DNA of 64,000 nt from Neophaeotheca triangularis. Its lineage: Eukaryota. How positions within the stretch are numbered: position 1 is the stretch's first letter; each line of letters opens with the position of its first letter. The notes beneath the pieces are model-generated. The model was not told where the DNA came from. It saw nothing but the letters and a program-made list of their open reading frames with translations, and ran no database searches. The position numbers and the translations under genes are program-made. Of the stretch, positions 1 through 11,992 are shown in pieces. Location of the stretch: assembly GCA_054600435.1 (NCBI GenBank), contig BAAIJX010000006.1, forward strand, positions 1 through 64,000, written 5' to 3'.

Positions 1-100
1 CTAACCCTAACCCTAACCCTAACCCTAACCCTAACCCTAACCCTAACCCTAACCCTAACCCTAACCCTAACCCTAACCCTAACCCTACCCTAACCCTAAC
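1..100 (+). repeat. Telomeric repeat (CCCTAA)n, chromosome end
   Basis: About 16 tandem CCCTAA units from base 1, with one 5-nt CCCTA variant at 83-87. This is the C-strand of the TTAGGG telomere typical of filamentous ascomycetes. Confidence 0.99.
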
Positions 101-775
101 TCTAGCTTAGATTCTAGCTCTATAGATATAGACTCTAAGGAAGAGAACCTAACGGCTACTAATATTATAGATCTAAGATCTAATTCTAGTACTAATAGTA
201 GTTATAATCCTACTAGATCTAAAACTAAAGAAAGATCTATCTCTAGATCTAGGAAAGAAAATAGACTAGAGACTAAGAAGCTTAAAGAGCTAGAGAATAC
301 TATAATAAGCCCTTCTAAAAATACACTAATAGAAGGCTATCTTAATAATATTAATAAAGATAAACCTAAAGATACTAGTAATTCTAGAGATATAGACTTA
401 GATCTAGATTTAGATCTAGATTCTTTCTTTACTATAGAGAGTAGTATAGAAGATAATATAAAAGTACCTAGCTCTAATAAAGAGCTAGATAATAGATCTC
501 TAAATCTAGAGAGTAACTTTAATAGATTTAGATTAGGATCTAGTATAGGGGGGCCTACTAGTAGTATTAAAGGACCTAGTAGAGTAGGATCTAAAAGATC
601 TTATAATAATAGAAATAGTAGCTCTAGTAGAGATCTAAGTCTAGAAAATAGAATAGAAGATAACTTTACTAATATAGAGGATGATCTTTCTAATACTAAG
701 ACTAAAGAGAAAAAGAAAGGAGGTAGACCTAAAAAGATTAAAACAGGAAAAAAGGGAAAGCCTAGAAAGGAGTAA
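83..775 (+). other. Start-less, stop-free 230-codon reading frame fused to the telomere (5'-truncated gene or element fragment) with a basic AT-hook-like C-terminus
   Basis: Manual translation from codon 83 gives PYPNPNSSLDSSSIDIDSKEENLTATNIIDLRSNS...EDDLSNTKTKEKKKGGRPKKIKTGKKGKPRKE, then TAA TAA at 773-778. No internal stop, and no Met, Gln, Trp, His or Cys codons. Confidence 0.7.
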
Positions 776-915
776 TAATCTTTTCTAGTCTTAGAATACT
801 TTATACTACTATATTTTAATACTCTTACTCTTTACTAATAGTCTTATTATTCCTTTTTTAATCTAAGTACTTAACTTACTATATCCTAATACTATAAATT
901 CCTAGTAATAATAAA

Positions 916-939
916 TCTTAACTCTAACTCTAACCCTAA
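916..939 (+). repeat. Degenerate interstitial telomere-like tract
   Basis: TCTTAA CTCTAA CTCTAA CCCTAA, in the same orientation as the terminal repeat. Confidence 0.65.
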
Positions 940-1111
940 TTTATGAAATTACTAAGTTTTAGTTTTACTTAAAAGAGTATAGATTTAGGGAGGGTTACTT
1001 CTTAGGAGTAAAGTCTATATTAGTAAAAGATATAGAAGTACTAAGCTTTTAAGATTACTTTATAGTATAAGGTAATTCTAATATATAGAGAATACTAAAG
1101 TAAGTAGGGAA

Positions 1112-2700
1112 GTTAAGATATATATAAAGCTATAGATTTATTAGATTATAACTAGTAGTTTCTATAGATACTATTAGGTCTAGTAAAGTCTACTAAGCTA
1201 GCTAGAAGTCCCTAGAAACTTCCTAGTACCTTTACTAGCCCTAAATTGTTAGAGTCTATAGTAAGTTCTAAGTCGATTTATATAGAGAGCTATAGATTTA
1301 CGACACCTTAGCTAGTAGTTTCTATAGATACTTTTAGGTCTAGTAAAGCCTATAAAACTAGCTAGAAGTCCCTAGAAACTTCCTAGTACCTTTACTAGCC
1401 CTAACTATCTAGAGTCTATAGTAAGTTCTTAGTCGATTTATGTAGAGGGCTATAGATTTACGACACCTTAGCTAGTAGTTTCTATAGATACCTTTAGGTC
1501 TAGTAAAGCCTATAAAACTAGCTAGAAGTCCCTAGGAACTTCCTACTACCTTTACTAATTCTTACTATTCTAGCTCTATAGTAAGTTCTTAGTCGATTTA
1601 TATAGAGAGCTATAGATTCACGACACCTTAGCTAGTAGTTTCTCTAGATACCTTTAGGTCTATTAAAGTCTATAAAACTAGCTAGAAGTCTCTAGAAACT
1701 TCCTACTACCTTTACTAATTCTTATTCTCTTAGGTTTATAGTAAGCTCTTAGTCGATTTATATAGAGAGCTATAGATTTACGACACCTTAGCTAGTAGTT
1801 TCTATAGATACTTTTAGGTCTAGTAAAGCCTATAAAACTAGCTAGAAGTCCCTAGAAACTTCTTAGTACCTTTACTAATACTAAGTTTCTAGAGTCTATA
1901 GTAAGTTCTTAGTCGATTTATGTAGAGGGCTATAGATTTACGACACCTTAGCTAGTAGTTTCTCTAGATACCTTTAGGTCTATTAAAGTCTATAAAACTA
2001 GCTAGAAGTCTCTAGAAACTTCCTACTACCTTTACTAATTCTTATTCTCTTAGGTTTATAGTAAGCTCTTAGTCGATTTATATAGAGAGCTATAGATTTA
2101 CGACACCTTAGCTAGTAGTTTCTATAGATACTTTTAGGTCTAGTAAAGCCTATAAAACTAGCTAGAAGTCCCTAGAAACTTCCTACTTCCTTTACTAATT
2201 CTTACTATTCTAGCTTAACCCTAAGTTCTTAGTCGATTTATATAGAGGGCTATAGATTTACTAGAACTTAGCTAGTAGTTTCTATAGGTCTTCTTAGGTA
2301 TAGTAAAGTCTATAAAGCTAGCTAGAGCTCCCTAGAAACTTTATAGTACTTTTAATAACTCTAAATACTAAGAGTCTATAGTAAGCTCTAAGTCGATTTA
2401 TATAGAAAGCTATAGATTTACTAGACCTTAACTAGTAGTTTCTATAGGTCTCTATAGATATACTAAAGCCTATAAAACTATCTAGAAGTCTATAGAAACT
2501 TCCTAATATCTTTTATATCTAATTCTTCCCCCTACCCTCTTATAAAAAGTATTACTAGGATTTATAGAGAGTTCTATAGATTTACGTTAGATACTAGCTC
2601 ATTTTCTATAGACTCTATAAACTATATAGATCCTAGGAAAACTAACTAGAAGTCCTAGAAAACTTCCTAGCTCTTATAAAAACTAATTTTCTTAATTTTG
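1112..2700. repeat. Subtelomeric tandem array, 160-bp unit, about 10 copies
   Basis: Anchor GTCGATTTA at 1272, 1432, 1592, 1752, 1912, 2072, 2232 and 2392 (exact 160-bp spacing). Degenerate flanking units near 1112 and 2552. Confidence 0.96.
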
Positions 2701-2727
2701 CCGGTAAAATAGAGTTATACCATTAGA

Positions 2728-3490
2728 GTGGTTATACTAGGCGCGATAGACGATAGCGAGGAGACAGAAGTAGGAGACGATATAGATAAGCGCTCCTCGC
2801 GTATCTCTAGTCGTAGTATTAGACGCTACTTAAGGCGCTAATCTCGTCATAATAGACGTAATTCTACTAGTATAGAAGAGAACGCCCTACCTATACCCGG
2901 TCTATATAAGAAGTAGTATATATAGTAGGAGGTTAAGAAGAATAGCGACGCGCCGCCTACCTCTAAGCGGTCTTTAAAGCTTTAGTCTCGCCTTTCGTTT
3001 TCCTGATCCCATCATAGCTCTATAGTGACTATAGACGGTAAAAAGCTACCTATACCTAGCCCTTAAGAGAACCGTCTACTATAGGAAGAGCTTTAGAAGC
3101 GCGCCCCTACTCCTTTTAACGCCGTAGCTACTAGGAATAGTGATTCTAAAGGGATCCGTAAGCGCTATTCGAGGGGCTTTAGACTCTTACGCTTACGCTA
3201 TAACTCTACGGCTATAGAACCCGACACCGCGTTACCCCTAATACCTAGACCCTTCGAACAATAGATGCTAGAAGATTAGCTAAACGAACACGCTCGTACC
3301 TAGTTCGATGTAGAGGAATCTTTACCTAGCCTTAAGGACACGAGTCGCCGTAGAAGGAATGCGAAATAGCGAGCCATTTTACCGCATACCGTTTCTTACA
3401 CAACCTAAGTTATGTAGAGCGAGGAGACTAATACTAGAGGCAAGTCTGGCTTAGCTACTATAGGGGACGTAGAATGTATTATAGAACTTG
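2728..3490 (+). pseudogene. RIP-inactivated gene relic (5'-truncated, unknown product)
   Basis: The frame starting at 2728 reads protein-like if TAG/TAA are restored to Gln (ENRLL*EEL*KRAPTPF; PFEQ*MLED*LNEHART*FDVEESLP). About 15 in-frame stops by manual count. Confidence 0.55.
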
Positions 3491-3566
3491 TAGTTCTTAT
3501 ATCGTGCTTAGATTATCAGCTAATGCCCGGAAAGCGGAATGTACATAGAAGAGAAATGTACCTCTA

Positions 3567-4810
3567 TTAGTTAAACAGTCGGTTCCCCCTCGACACCGTT
3601 TCATTCGTAGGCATCTCATGCCTCTCCTCTACTGTCTCTAGCCTAGTCGACGAAGCGCTCCTACCGAGTTCTACTTGCCCGTGTTTTGCTGGTAAGTCTT
3701 GCGCTTCGTTACCAAGTGGCGCTTCACTAGCTAGCTGTTCCATCTCGTGCCGCTGACCGTCGGTACCCAACATCGCTCCACGATCAAGCTCCTCCCCGTC
3801 AAGCTCAGCTAAGGTCGCCGGTTGGGGAGAAGAACTTGAGTGCTGGCGTCTGCGACGCCGCGGCCGCCACCACAGAAAATACATCAAGGCTACGATTAAG
3901 CCGATGAGGCATGGAACGCCAACACCGAGCCCTACGCCTAGAGCGGTGGAGTCTGCATCGGAGCCATTCGAGGCATCGTTTAGGGGATCTTGGCCGTTGC
4001 CGTTGCCGCTCTCGCTATCGTCTTCTTCGCCGGCATCCTCTTGCGAAGTTCTTTCGCCCAGGAGTACAGCATCCGCAAAGTCGTTAGCTATAGCACATTC
4101 GTATTCCTGTCTGACGGAGCCGCTAGTGTAGAGACCGTTGAGCGGGCTACAGGCCAGTTCGGCAGTTGAGCTTAAGATGAAATTCCCTCCGACAACAGTT
4201 AGAGCCGGGAAAGACGCACTGCAGCTAGCCGTCAGTTGAAAGTTCGATGCGCTTTCCACCTGTCACTCACTGAACACTTACTCGCTAATGGGCCCGTCGA
4301 TCTCAACGTTCCCGCTGACTCTCTCAAGTCGATAGAAAGTTCCAATCGATGTGAGGTTCATGTTGCTAGAGATGATAAAATCGCCATTAATGGTTTGCAG
4401 TTCCGGTAGCGTTTTCGAGAAGTTCCATACCGGTGAGATTGTGGGTATAAATCCCGTCGTAGTATTCGCTTGGTGTTACAAGAGCAATTCCGCCGGCATA
4501 TGTTTGACATCCAGAACCCAGAACGGCAGCTTCTCCGGTGCTTGTCACGGTGTAGGTGAGGCCAGACACCAAGCTGCAGCCTGGCCATCGAGCGACGTTA
4601 GCACCGACTCTATGCACAGGGTCTTTCCCTCAACTGCTCAACAGTTCAAGCGATGGCAGAAGCGAACGTCTCACCGTTAGTGACTACGACAGTCTCGTAC
4701 AAAGTGTCCGCGTAAGTTAGTATCTGCGTTCGCGTGTAGGACGTGCGCGAGGTGGTGCTGGCTACGCCTGTCATTGAGGCTGCTGTCGGGCTGGCCGTTG
4801 AAGCAGACAT
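3567..4810 (-). pseudogene. Ecm33/Sps2-like (receptor L-domain repeat) single-pass membrane protein, apparently frameshifted
   Basis: Segments CSLVSGLTYTV...GCQTYAGGIAL, PELQTINGDFIISSNMNLTSI...RLERVSGNVEIDGPIS and ASFPALTVVGGNFILSST; TM helix GVGLGVGVPCLIGLIVALMYFLWW followed by RPRRRRR; AELDG tail. Intron 4219-4281 (GTAAGT..CTGAC..CAG). The frame changes near 4405 with no convincing intron. Confidence 0.5.
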
Positions 4811-7517: not shown

Positions 7518-9730
7518 TCAACCAATAGGTCTAGAAAAAGATCCGTAGTCGAAATCGTTCGTCGGGCCAAAGTACGCATCGAATGTGCCGTTGAGTTCAG
7601 ATTGACCAGGGCCCCGCAAAACAGACATGAGCCAAGAGTCGTCTAGTTGCCCCCAATTTTCACCCATTAAATTTGTCTGTGATTGTTGTCCACCTCCACT
7701 AAAGACATTTTGAGGATACTGCTGTTCGACTGGTGCGAGTTGCCCTGTCTGCATGGTCGGCGTAGGCGGGTTGTTGGCGGAGGGCGTGGGTAAGCTGTTA
7801 GGAGTGGCGAAAAAGAGTCCTTCGCCACTGCGGTCCACGTTGGCGGCATCGAGGACATTGTATCTTGAGAACTTGTGGGGCATTGCCGGAGACATGGTGT
7901 CGGGAGTTCCGTGGGAGGTTTCTGGCTGCGGTGACTGTTGGCGCGACTGGGAGACAGGTGGTGCGCCATGGTCCAGGAGTCGTTGGATGTCGCGCTGGAT
8001 GGGACTGACTGCAGGGTTGTATAAACGCAGTTTCTCCACCATGCGAAGGCAGTGTGACACGGCTGTCTTGATCTCCATTGGTGCTGGCGGTGTCTCTTTC
8101 ATGTACACAGATCGAGACACGATGTTAGCGCTTTGATATGCGGAGAGAGCGATGCTCGGCGCTATCAAAGGCGTTTCTGGGTCGAGATCCACAAGATGTC
8201 CCAGAAGGCCCGCAACAGAATAGGCATGAGCAACGCACTGGGACATGCAGTGCTTTGCAAAGTCTTGAGGAATCCGGTAGAGGAGACGAGAGGAGCTCGT
8301 TTCTCGGAAACCAGGTGTGAGAAAGCGGTAGAGGTCGCAGTGGCATTGATGCCAGGTAATGTGTATGAGACAGTAAGGTGATAGCGAGGATGAGCACGAG
8401 CGTAGCGACAAGTTCTTCGAATTGAGCACAATGTTTTCCGGCCACGCTTTTTGTTGCTGGTCTAGCTCGAACTCGAAGCCTTGGATCGCCCGTTGCATTT
8501 CAGAAGCATCTGCTTCGATACCTGTTACGGATTTGGTGTAGCGCAGAATGCGATCCCGTATGTCGACGACTTTCATGAAGAAGCCCAAGATACTTGGCGT
8601 AGCTGATGCGGGTGATAGGTTGGACCGCAGGGTGAGTTTCGTCGGCGGCTGATCCAGTTCGAAGGTTTGCTCGTCCGAGGGCAGCCAGAGACGAATCGAC
8701 GGAGCACGGCAGAGAGTGAGGTCATCTATGCCACCAGACATGAAGGTGTCTGTAACGTAAATGGCCCATACAAGCCGTCTACGTGACTCTTGGGCCAGGA
8801 ACGGAAGTGAAGGGTCCTCGTAGTTCAGCCGCAGCAAAAAGGCCATGCGCGTGCAGAGGGCGAAAAGAGACACAACCCGTCTGGAGTCACCCGTGGCAAG
8901 CCGGTAGAGTACGACTAATTGCAGTGCCTGAACATGCACCACAGAAGGCCGGGTTAGAGATAGCAGGATATCATGCTCCGCCTCATCAGCTCGCCGTGCG
9001 CCTTCTTCTTTGAGATCGGGGTGGTGAAGCGATGCCATGGCACATACAGCGCGCAACAGGCCAGCATCGAGCTGACCGTGCTGCTTTTGGTTCATGAAGA
9101 CGGCTTTGTGCAGAAAATTGCACTCCGGATGTGGATGAACGGCGCGGAAGAAGGTCTGCACGAGCACGCTGATCGGGAAACGTTCGTCTTCGGTAGACGG
9201 CATGCTTGTCCGGTGCGAGGTTGCTGAAGGGGCACCCGTTGTTGCTCTGATCGCAGTCGCATGCTCCCCTCCCGAGGGCGTGAAGGGTGGCGCTGAAGAG
9301 GCGGCGGCAGCGGGCTGGCTCCACGGCTCAGAACTGGACGGCGCAAAGGCCTGAGATCCAAGCCTGGTATCCTCGTAAACGCAAGGCACACCTTTCTCAC
9401 GGCAGCGTAAACAGTCAGGCTGCTGATCGGTGCACCGTGACTTGTGGCGTTGACACGCCTGGCATGCTAGGCGTGTTCGTTTGCGCGGTGGAGGACCGCT
9501 GGGGACAGCGCTAGGACTCCCCGGCGACGCGGCCACCATGAAGTTGCACGCAAACCCTAGACGAACACAGGTCTCACAGCCAGCTCCATTGCCGTCTTGC
9601 GACTGTGGCCGACCGGGGCACCGTACCTGTTGGCGTGGTCAGAATGAACGTTGACAAAGGTATGCAGTGGCAGCTTCGGCGGGGTTCCGCATCTGACCTT
9701 TCTGTGTCTACATTGGATGCAAGTCGTCAT
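7518..9730 (-). CDS. Zn(II)2Cys6 transcription factor with two zinc clusters and a fungal TF middle domain
   Basis: Exon 1 (9698-9730, MTTCIQCRHRK), intron 9627-9697, then VRCPGRPQSQDGNGAGCETCVRLGFAC in frame with ORF 7518-9539. That ORF holds ACQACQRHKSRC..CLRCREKGVPCVY and ESRRRLVWAIYVTD. Confidence 0.9.
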
Positions 9731-10148
9731 CTCGACATGCCGCGACAAACAGCTGGTAATGAATTGAAATGGAAATTTTCAAGTAGGGAATGTCGCGCTC
9801 AACAAGGAAGTTTGAAGGGTCTAAGGTAGGTAGGTAAGTAGGTACTTATGCAGCTTGTGTAACGGTGGTGGACACGATCGCGCCATGGGGTTGCTTCGAA
9901 AGCTTACAGTAGGTAAGTATGTAACAAGCTTGCCCTGCGAGAACGTCCACGGGTGAGACCAGAAAGCTCGGCGTGTGAGGAACGTTCACACTGTCTTTAT
10001 TTTCAACGTCCACTTAAATACAACAAGAAGCCTGTCGGTGAGATATGCTCTTCAAGACGAAACTAGAATGGACGTGGCGTGACGATGGTGAGATTACGAC
10101 AGAGGAACGGAGGAAATTACAGCTACGACTGATCGCTCTTCCACCAAT

Positions 10149-11992
10149 CTACCGCCCCTCTTCATATTGAGAGACAATCCTGTCCTTCTCCAACTCCTTG
10201 TTCCTGTCCAGCGCCTCTGTGTCCCCGCTCTTCTCAATCTCAGCCAATGCCCGAGCAGCACCATGAGTCTGGTAGTTCTTGAACTGCCACGCCCGCAGCT
10301 TAGCGCCAAAAAGCTCGTCGACTTCCTCCAATGTTCGGCCCTGGCAGATGATAAGCACTCGAGAACAAACGACATGCTGGAGACGAGTTCCAAGCCTACC
10401 TTGAGTTCTGGAAAGAACAGCACTGACCATACAACAGAGAATGCAGCAACCGAGCCAAAGATCCATCCTATATTAGAGCCCATGGAGGGCAAAAGGTATG
10501 GTGTGACGAATGTGACGAGGAACGCTGCGACGACATCCATGGCGGTACCAAAAGCCTAGTCAGTAGTCAGTGTATGCCCGGGCACCCGCAGTCACGAAAC
10601 GAGGCCTACCAAAGTCTTCTTACGCAACCGCACACCTCCAATCTCGGCTCCGGTCAGGAAGGCAGTGTTTGAGGCCGAAATACGTGTGAAGGCCGGGAGG
10701 AGGACGAAACAAGCTACCAGAGTGTTTGTCTCGTTTTGGTTGGGGTTGTTTGTCAGACCCACTCCAGATCCCAGATAGAGCAGGAAGGCGCAAGCGGCGC
10801 TCGCGTAGATCATCAGCGGTCGACGGCCAGCGATATCAAAAAGGACGATACCAAGTCCACCGCCAAACACCCCTACTGCTTGGCCAATGATTGTGTAAGT
10901 GAAGGACATGGCTCCGAGGCCTTCCTGAACGTAAAAGGTCGGGGCGTAAGATTGAACAAACTGGTTGCCGTTGGTCTGCTCGAGGATGAAGAGGGTTGTA
11001 GCAATCTGGTGAAGATCATGTCAGCGGAGGCCCTACTCCATCCGATTCTCTCCGTACTCACCCAAGTCTGCCTGATGTGTCCGCGCCGGAAAAGATCCAA
11101 CCAAGAAGCTGTCTCGGTCGCCAGACTCTCCTCAACCACCAACTCCAAAGCATCAGCCTCGGCAGCAGTCGCTCCGTTCGCGACCTCTTCCTTGCGGCGA
11201 ATCTTGTCCAAATTCTTCTTAGCCTCCTGCGGCCTACCCTTGAAAATGAGCCATCGCGGCGACTCCGGTGTCAAGGGTACCAAGGCAAGGATGCCGACGG
11301 CAGGAATGAATTGCATAGCGGTGGGAATCATCCAGCCCTCTCTTCCAAGGTGCGTCGCGTAAGCTCGAGACATTCCCGCTCCCCACAAGTTTCCTAGACC
11401 CGTGAAGAACATGATAGATCCGGACAGAAGACCTCTGCAGGCAGGCGGTGATGTCTCCGCGTTGTACCCGGGAACCACATTTTCCACCAAACCAACGGCG
11501 AAGTAGGCCACAAGGCGGCCGGCAGTGAACTGCCCCCAGTGATAGGCAGTGATTTCAACTGTATTGCGGTCAGCATTCGCAGAGTTTTCAAACTGTTCAA
11601 CGGCGAATGGCAGCCTTACTTATAACACCAATACTCTGGATGATGGCGACAGCGTACATGCTTTTCTTGAAACCAAGTCGCTCGATGAAGGCATCTGCAC
11701 CAAGGCAGCCCAGTAGTTTGCCAATCCATGGTAGGCTGTTCATCAAAGATTTCCTCACAGCCGGCAGAATATACTCATCCCCGTCGAGCTCTCCAAAGCG
11801 GCGGAGGAAAGAAGGTAGAGCTTGCAATGAGCCGAAAGATCCAGTATCACTACGGGCATGTTAGTGTGTGGTCAAGGAACGGCTGCGATGCTAGAGGGGT
11901 CCTCACAGGCCAAAGAGAATGGCGCCCTGCAAGAAGACCAGGCTGTTGAAGATGATATACGGAGTCAACTGGCTCCATGTATCCTTGGCCAT
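10149..11992 (-). CDS. MFS sugar porter family transporter (multi-exon)
   Basis: ATG at 11992 (MAKDTWSQLTPYII). Motifs ERLGFKK, YNAETSPPACRG, PESPRWL, DIAGRRPL, FFPELK/GRTLEEVDELF. GT-AG introns join the ORF fragments. Confidence 0.88.

Follow-up and report, generated by a model that had tools for sequence, protein, structure and literature searches.

Repeat-induced point mutation (RIP) acts on duplicated DNA only. It turns the codons for Gln and Trp into stops, and this is usually regarded as the terminal fate of repeats in the Pezizomycotina: CpA and TpG are nearly absent, TpA is in excess, and the reading frames collapse into stops. The locus described here, with a GC content of 0.23-0.32, shares the compositional traits of such relics and departs from them in the last point. 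It lies at the left end of a stretch of 64,000 nucleotides of Neophaeotheca triangularis (contig BAAIJX010000006.1, positions 1 to 64,000; hereafter the window), where an open reading frame (ORF) runs from position 83, inside the terminal telomere repeat, to position 775 through DNA saturated with RIP. In our judgment, 101-775 is probably the native 3′ end of a Crypton-like gene that had become hardened against RIP, in a copy that was broken, healed by a telomere, and has remained open passively. The protein family to which it belongs keeps frames of 700-1200 codons, unlike ordinary RIP relics.

Among the described elements, the Cryptons of fungi (CryptonF) come closest. Like the present family they are fungal and multi-copy, and consist of one long gene for a protein with a tyrosine-recombinase-like domain and a C-terminal DNA-binding part, both of which are predicted in our case; the fungal Cryptons have a GCR1_C domain, whereas our family has neither this domain nor a recombinase match in Pfam (PMC3212892). 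The family has instead an N-terminal finger of the OrsD type, C-terminal AT-hooks, and a coding sequence that is saturated with RIP and yet open. An OrsD domain has been reported for subtelomeric helicase genes of several fungi (10.1101/721753), and these telomere-linked genes resemble our locus both in the N-terminal finger and in subtelomeric position. The Pfam scans of family members gave no helicase (DEAD/Helicase_C) and no reverse transcriptase domain, which sets the family apart from the telomere-linked helicases and from the telomere-targeted retrotransposons. The retrotransposons meant in this comparison are those of the MoTeR type. In Aspergillus flavus, finally, AT-rich elements (classes A and F-J) have been described that are telomere-adjacent, RIP-like, of constant polarity, of unexplained origin, and without a recognisable transposon; neither open frames nor a recombinase are mentioned for them there, and the comparison is one of descriptions only (PMC9910759).

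The Open Frame at the Chromosome End

An initial annotation of this DNA, made from the sequence alone, had drawn attention to a stop-free frame of 230 codons devoid of Gln, Trp, Met, His and Cys. The counts bear this out. The frame from 83 has 230 sense codons, none of them ATG, and ends in a TAA; over 83-775 the three forward frames hold 1, 30 and 66 in-frame stops, the single one being the terminal TAA, and the three reverse frames hold 16, 4 and 49. All five residues are missing from the peptide encoded by 83-772, the C-terminus of which reads KKKGGRPKKIKTGKKGKPRKE. One point needs to be corrected: the former gene is 101-772 only, and codons 83-100 are telomere repeat, which is open by chance after a one-base slip. 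Its contrast with the neighbouring relic, to which it had given about 15 stops, stands, since each frame of the relic at 2728-3490, over 254 codons, is interrupted by 13-30 stops.

The mark of RIP is plain in the dinucleotides. The frame (83-775) retains 2 CpA and 1 TpG in 692 dinucleotides; TpA/ApT is 1.75 in 101-772 and (CpA+TpG)/(ApC+GpT) is 0.07, against 0.55-0.70 and 1.17-1.19 in ordinary genes of the window, the usual thresholds for RIP being about 0.89 and 1.03. The TpA dinucleotides are also strictly phased. As many as 89 of the 125 in 83-775 lie across codon positions 3-1, and 5 at positions 1-2. Such a bias is the residue of RIP on a coding sequence rich in C at the third codon position, and the region was therefore a coding frame. 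The opposite strand has a peculiarity of its own, one minus-strand frame, that with only 4 stops over 83-775, in which three stop-to-stop stretches of 44, 87 and 76 codons follow one another over 202-831; the rigid phasing of TpA by codon position has probably produced this openness as a side effect.

It could be argued that the frame is nevertheless an ordinary RIP relic, a gene segment that by luck was without Gln and Trp and has stayed open by chance. The composition of a low-complexity, disordered tail may be skewed to begin with, and the frame was chosen as an outlier among many windows. Chance is a poor explanation, however, of the length that is seen. None of 2000 dinucleotide-preserving shuffles reached 224 open codons (the maximum was 108), and when saturating RIP was simulated on the window's own genes (21 long ORFs, 12135 codons, 5.8% Gln+Trp), not one of 7452 windows of 224 codons was free of stops, with 140 codons as the longest run. 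The relatives of the gene, moreover, are depleted over 1000+ codons of structured domains, and in P0009, a related protein of normal composition, the part of the tail that corresponds to the window contains 9 Gln and 2 Trp; of the 12 other members compared, 10 have neither residue there. It follows from the P0009 tail that the ancestor was not naturally free of Gln and Trp; the initial annotation had named such an ancestor as a way in which its reading could fail, and this candidate is ruled out. We consider the relic explanation largely refuted, and its remaining chances as minute.

A Family of Recombinase-Like Proteins

An exhaustive phmmer search with 101-772 against 1.84 billion representative sequences found three proteins, the best with an E-value of 1.8e-10, all of which finish in a ...GRPKKIKT..GRPxK tail. 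Onward searches from these matches added sets of 16 and 7 proteins, the longest of 1283 amino acids (aa). Their sources are either contigs of Mb size or numerous short ones of 3.5-4.5 kb. The peptide encoded in the window can be aligned with the last ~230-290 residues of family proteins of 1100-1280 aa, and the position of the stop is common to them. The conserved motifs of the tail, SSxDSSS, SPSK..I..Y, NLNRF..SSL..PSS, SKRS[FY]SNR and the double AT-hook, are present in the window as well. Together with the shared stop position, these motifs imply that the window holds the native 3′ end of the gene, and the annotation was right to see in it the 3′ part of one. A search for longer proteins using the window tail found none, which is weak evidence.

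The annotation had also read the basic end of the peptide as resembling an AT-hook or a nuclear localization signal. In its favor, the double motif GRPKK...GRPxK is conserved in the alignment across the family, non-RIPed members included. The Pfam AT_hook profile remains below its threshold in the relatives (15.3 against 17.4 bits in P0010; 10.4 bits in P0004), and no Pfam family, AT_hook included, matched the peptide of the open frame. In the modelled full-length protein, the tail is disordered and is preceded by an OrsD-type finger, a confidently predicted helical region, and a conserved core, in that order. The OrsD-type finger, a C2H2 zinc finger at the N-terminus, scores above the cut-off of PF12013 in P0017 and P0018.

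The core is what suggests a recombinase. A model of the catalytic fragment, residues 590-880 of P0019 (predicted local distance difference test, pLDDT, 70.5; predicted template modelling score, pTM, 0.70), was compared with 48,161 chains by VIA-align, and the top 21 matches were all tyrosine recombinases or type IB topoisomerases. The best was an archaeal Xer, with a Z of 11.3 and a root-mean-square deviation of 3.3 over 148 aligned residues; XerA (9.5), XerH (9.4), XerD (9.2) and Cre (8.3) were also among the matches, and Flp and Ndc10 scored lower (5.1-5.4 for Ndc10). Foldseek likewise placed XerA at the top for this fragment, with a probability of 0.97. Searched with the whole 1130-aa model it returned nothing clear, XerA ranking 9th with a probability of 0.44, and only the isolated catalytic fragment matched recombinases. 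In the alignment, R650, K688, R774 and Y830 (numbered as in P0019) show little or no variation, and most members retain the His at 820. The order of these putative catalytic residues and the spacing from the His to the Tyr seem to resemble those of Xer and Cre.

The gene forms one ORF of 3.3-3.7 kb, found on contigs that measure 3.5-5.1 kb, and a unit size of ~3.5-4.5 kb leaves no space for a reverse transcriptase. With one gene per ~4.5-kb unit, no reverse transcriptase, and several copies per locus, the family can be called Crypton-like.

Composition and Selection under RIP

The depletion seen in the open frame is a property of whole proteins. In counts taken from the family proteins and long frames, P0017 (1225 aa) has 1 Gln, no Trp, 5 His, 4 Cys and 1 Met; P0014 (1018 aa) has 1 Gln, no Trp, 3 His, no Cys and 2 Met; P0010 (1213 aa) has 6 Gln, 1 Trp, 5 His, 3 Cys and 1 Met; and P0003 (739 aa) has 3 Gln, no Trp, 2 His, no Cys and 1 Met. 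Two members are of normal composition, with 48 (P0009) and 50 (P0019) Gln and Trp combined. Tyr makes up 4-7% of most AT-rich members and 2.9% of P0009, a rise that is expected from the conversion of His and Cys to Tyr under RIP. One member stands by itself: P0015 (1283 aa, on an 8.4-kb contig) is rich in Ala, Arg, Glu and Gly and poor in Asn, Ile and Lys, with 2 Gln, no Trp, 1 Met and 55 Tyr. It gives the impression of a RIP-hardened lineage whose GC content later rose again by drift while the lost residues did not return.

At the DNA level, 13 related metagenome loci were compared, three of which (L001-3) are one element seen in three samples. The homologous spans have a GC content of 0.21-0.31, 0.1-3.5 CpA+TpG and ~15-21 TpA per 100 dinucleotides; the genes that flank them in the same loci have 14-15 CpA+TpG. 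Stop-to-stop frames extend up to 1089 codons in L001-3 and to at least 1142 codons in L004. Aligned spans of at least 700 columns hold 1-9 stops, where RIP of a P0009-like gene would give ~48. By locus, there are 1 in the 1118-column span and 1 in a short N-terminal piece of L001-3, 2 in L004, both within the first 90 codons, 5 and 7 in L005, 9 in L006 and 6 more in a shorter piece, 2 in L007, 4 in L008, 3 in L010, and 4 in L011. The decayed copies look like recent casualties of a hardened gene, unlike the wrecks that RIP ordinarily leaves.

Two of the loci hold pairs of copies in one AT-rich island: inverted in L005 (1760-3862, minus strand, and 8666-11386, plus strand) and direct in L010 (4518-7760 and 11563-12945). 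Such pairs fit a repeat that builds up in the DNA made by RIP. In L001, at 813-4354, the 1089-codon frame is without ATG; a different frame, interrupted by one stop, encodes the first ~90 residues. Either a frameshift or an intron would explain the change, and hardened copies may have a weak point in their start codon, which contains a TpG target.

The few targets that are left bear on selection. L004 retains 9 CpA/TpG in 3426 bases, and all nine are at codon positions 1-2, for which the chance is (1/3)^9 = 5e-5. The residues that they specify are a conserved His upstream, those of the C-x2-C...H-x4-H finger, the YRH His, the His of the xHS that immediately precedes the catalytic Tyr, one conserved Gln, and one Cys; at least seven of the nine fall on conserved zinc-finger or catalytic positions. 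In L001, 6 of 19 residual CpA/TpG are the upstream His, the Cys and His of the finger, and the His of YRH, and in P0003, P0004, P0005 and P0011 the only two His are those of YRH and xHS, as read by eye from the alignment. The hardened lineages are 0.5 to >2 substitutions per site apart, in a quick tree for which composition heterogeneity was flagged, and have kept frame and motifs. That residual targets sit on essential residues, and that divergent lineages keep the frame, argues that the family has evolved as a working gene under RIP. As far as sequences can tell, this indicates that the RIP targets were lost while selection kept the frame. The initial annotation had proposed a RIP-tolerant gene with a frame held open by selection, and for the family the proposal holds; the window's own copy is a different matter, as will be seen below.

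A family history along the following lines probably accounts for these data. The family would be a repeated, single-gene, Crypton-like one, resident in the AT-rich islands of fungi. Most of its members would have undergone saturating RIP while under purifying selection, and every dispensable CpA and TpG would have been lost. The loss would have removed Gln, Trp, Met and most of the His and Cys, the codons of zinc-binding and catalytic residues being kept. In the hardened sequence that resulted, neither RIP nor any other transition could produce a stop codon.

Another view of the same data is that these are host or domesticated heterochromatin genes, in the way that Ndc10/Cbf2 came from a Crypton recombinase, and no mobile element at all. 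Purifying selection over long times is evident, AT-hooks suit the binding of AT-rich DNA made by RIP, and Ndc10 is among the fold matches. Against this, several copies occur per locus or genome (two in L005, two or more in L010, and two variants in one of the sequencing runs described below), many copies are decayed, and the recurrence of members on contigs of 3.5-4.5 kb is typical of collapsed repeats. The restriction of RIP to duplicated DNA points the same way. We find the host-gene explanation quite unlikely, and favor the Crypton-like element.

With only modest assurance, we lean towards a broader conclusion. A lineage of single-gene tyrosine-recombinase elements would have become effectively immune to RIP by evolving, in the course of repeated RIP, more than 1000 codons without any that RIP can convert, CpA and TpG being retained only where a zinc-binding or catalytic His or Cys requires them; it would live, and perhaps move, in the AT-rich heterochromatin that RIP has made, subtelomeres included, possibly guided by its AT-hooks. 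If this is true, a transposon would have answered RIP with a counter-adaptation that is recorded in its amino-acid composition. Frames of kilobase length after saturating RIP would mean that adaptation to the defence itself is within the reach of a gene that is selfish or resident in heterochromatin. The idea predicts that a hardened gene, when duplicated in a RIP-proficient cross, stays intact. There is a warning for annotation as well, that "RIPed AT-rich junk" can conceal coding genes without an ATG-rich, Gln- and Trp-containing signature. A full-text literature search, most subscription journals and Repbase being outside its reach, turned up no account of a recombinase family that is intact in spite of saturating RIP. 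Elements of this type, Crypton-like with a tyrosine recombinase only, are known; what appears to be new is a coding state hardened against RIP in which the residual targets are restricted to essential residues.

The Fate of the Telomeric Copy

In two public sequencing runs (X1 and X2) the matching contigs continue upstream of base 96 as non-telomeric DNA, for 929 and 2252 bases. This agrees with the initial annotation, in which the gene was said to be cut by telomere addition. The 30 letters upstream in the run contigs, read by hand, are open in the same frame. The X1 contig has 15 differences from the window over 96-549, and two variants over 520-633 and 766-879 show that there are at least two copies. 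A further run with the organism label of X1 (X5) gave no cover and another (X3) short bits only, which is no proof of absence. A contig of run X2 (record 11) also has a more diverged copy over 465-629, with 23 differences, which departs from the window after 629; it lacks one base at 564 and has gained one behind 575, so that the frame is regained after 11 bases.

Since the matches in the runs begin at 96, the CTAAC at 96-100 belongs to the element and to the telomere repeat alike. We infer from this overlap, which is the pattern expected, that telomerase seeded on a GTTAG 3′ end after a break. The arrangement is that of chromosome healing by de novo telomere addition, in which the repeat joins formerly coding DNA at a short match and longer copies are found elsewhere. 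Compared with that process there is nothing unusual here; the event is deduced from a single junction. The break would have occurred within the gene, and healing by telomerase at the 5-base match would have left a tail without promoter and without ATG, the frame of which would have stayed open through the inherited hardened sequence and a drift of a few percent, with no use being made of this copy.

What remains at the chromosome end is a gene that has lost ~80% of its length and lies directly against the telomere. From its sister copy it differs by 13 transitions and 7 transversions, 6 of them synonymous and 14 non-synonymous, with no stops; under neutrality 5.4 synonymous differences are expected. 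Not one of the 672 possible transitions in 101-772 creates a stop, nor does any of the 197 C>T or G>A changes among them, while 80 of the 1344 transversions do, and the probability that 8 random transversions produce no stop is 0.61. Because no transition creates a stop, the open frame of this copy needs no selection. The copy is a dead, telomere-healed fragment, and its frame survives passively; selection, which the initial annotation had invoked, is not found at work here.

A defender of the truncated frame as a working gene, coding for a small telomere-proximal AT-hook protein under selection, might point to the SPSK, NRF..SS, SKRSY and AT-hook motifs, which are still readable, and to the fact that no stop has arisen. 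Openness is expected anyway from a sequence of this kind, however, and the synonymous and non-synonymous differences are in the numbers expected without selection. There is no ATG in 230 codons and only telomere repeat upstream, and the second AT-hook core reads GKP instead of GRP. A working gene is therefore very unlikely, and the dead fragment is the reading that we retain. For the window itself this is a modest result, a healed chromosome end inside a dead copy.

It is worth pointing out that a number of observations count against the account of a hardened, Crypton-like gene with a healed end. The assignment as a recombinase comes from a predicted fold and motif spacing. The E-value of the XerA match in Foldseek is weak (0.045), the family does not conserve the His that an HxxR box usually has, a Pfam scan of nine members gave no Phage_integrase or other integrase, no DUF3435 and no GCR1_C, and a profile search of the PDB gave nothing relevant, only an E-value above 2 to an unrelated protein. 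At the DNA level, no copy among the related loci is fully intact: even L001-3 has its two stops and a change of frame near the N-terminus, and its long frame is without ATG. The intact, full-length AT-rich members are proteins predicted in a database that lists called ORFs only, and this introduces a selection bias. The microhomology consists of 5 bases at a single junction. The window may have been assembled from the sample behind X1, in which case X1 would not be independent, and there is no RNA run among the sequencing runs listed as carrying the sequence. Recombinase activity, mobility, the order of events and the seeding by telomerase accordingly have to be understood as parts of a reconstruction.

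A Possible Association with Telomeres

The initial annotation had spoken of a telomere-resident element. Taken further, the family would be resident at telomeres or subtelomeres, targeted there with fixed polarity in the manner of telomere-linked helicases or telomere-targeted retroelements, and the terminal position would be no accident of breakage. Some observations are in keeping with this idea. The gene reads away from the CCCTAA end, and a degenerate tract of the same polarity follows at 922-939. In L002, two (CCCTAA)2 tracts lie ~3 kb upstream of the gene, in the same polarity relative to it as in the window, and telomere-like dimers were hit 6 times in the related loci together, where local shuffles lead one to expect 0.27; the interstitial tracts are at L002 353-396, L003 11389, and L005 1134 and 6017. 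The OrsD domain of the subtelomeric helicase genes and the polar subtelomeric repeats of Aspergillus flavus, both introduced above, would also suit it. On the other hand, none of the 13 related loci has three or more telomere units, and several sit between ordinary GC-normal genes. The junction in the window, moreover, is inside coding sequence at a microhomology, and so resembles the healing of a break rather than the end of an element. Telomere residence has to be regarded as conjectural; we give the targeted version a small but real chance, and prefer a broken and healed copy.

The Neighbourhood

The features of the window near the chromosome end are listed in the table, along with tandem arrays of similar unit size in the related loci. 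From 3567 on, the window has ordinary fungal genes, including those for a sulfatase, a Zn2Cys6 factor, an M20 peptidase and a glyoxal oxidase. A tblastn search of the family against the whole 64 kb detected no further piece of the gene, and the relic (2700-3560) had no tblastx partner within the window.

Table. Features at the left end of the window and tandem arrays in related loci (TRF, Tandem Repeats Finder).
Position	Strand	Feature	Remarks
1 to ~100-104	+	Terminal telomere repeat (CCCTAA)n, left chromosome end	One-base slip near 86
96-100	+	CTAAC common to telomere repeat and element; likely telomerase seed (GTTAG on the G strand)	Seeding deduced
101-772	+	Last 224 codons (disordered C-terminal tail) of the putative RIP-hardened gene for a tyrosine-recombinase-like protein; 5′ four fifths absent	
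704-772	+	Basic end with two AT-hook-like cores (GGRPKK, GKPRK); family form GRPKK...GRPxK	Alignment
773-775	+	Native stop codon of the gene, position as in relatives	Alignment
776-1118	+	RIP-saturated 3′ flank, duplicated with the ORF in run X1	
922-939	+	Degenerate three-unit telomere-like tract CTCTAA CTCTAA CCCTAA, polarity of the terminal repeat	0.00 expected, whole-window shuffles
1119-2513		Tandem array of 160-bp units, 8.7 copies (TRF), RIP-saturated	Degenerate copies to ~2690
2701-3560		Partly RIP-mutated relic, grading into the first normal gene	No relation to the family
L003 590-2560; L007 2335-5119, 6692-8430; L010 2663-3376; L006 19727-20067		Array units of 164-175, 161, 140, 162, 157 bp	

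Arrays of ~160-bp units adjoin the gene in several independent loci, with no detectable sequence in common with the unit in the window. An nhmmer profile of the 160-bp units found no array in the related loci, the best E-value being 0.07, and no convincing conserved palindrome was seen on inspection of the unit. One might guess that the array is the site of the recombinase; the initial annotation had suggested that the encoded protein could bind it. The arrays may belong to the element or represent satellites of nucleosome size in RIP heterochromatin, and their recurrence may also be a coincidence.

Between the array and the first gene (2701-4262), RIP fades in a gradient: CpA+TpG rises from 2.0 through 5.0 to 10.7 per 100 dinucleotides, and reaches ~13.5 further in. 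The ORF at 3567-4262 (minus strand), which belongs to no Pfam family, still has a TpA/ApT of 1.32, and this suggests leakage of RIP into a single-copy gene.

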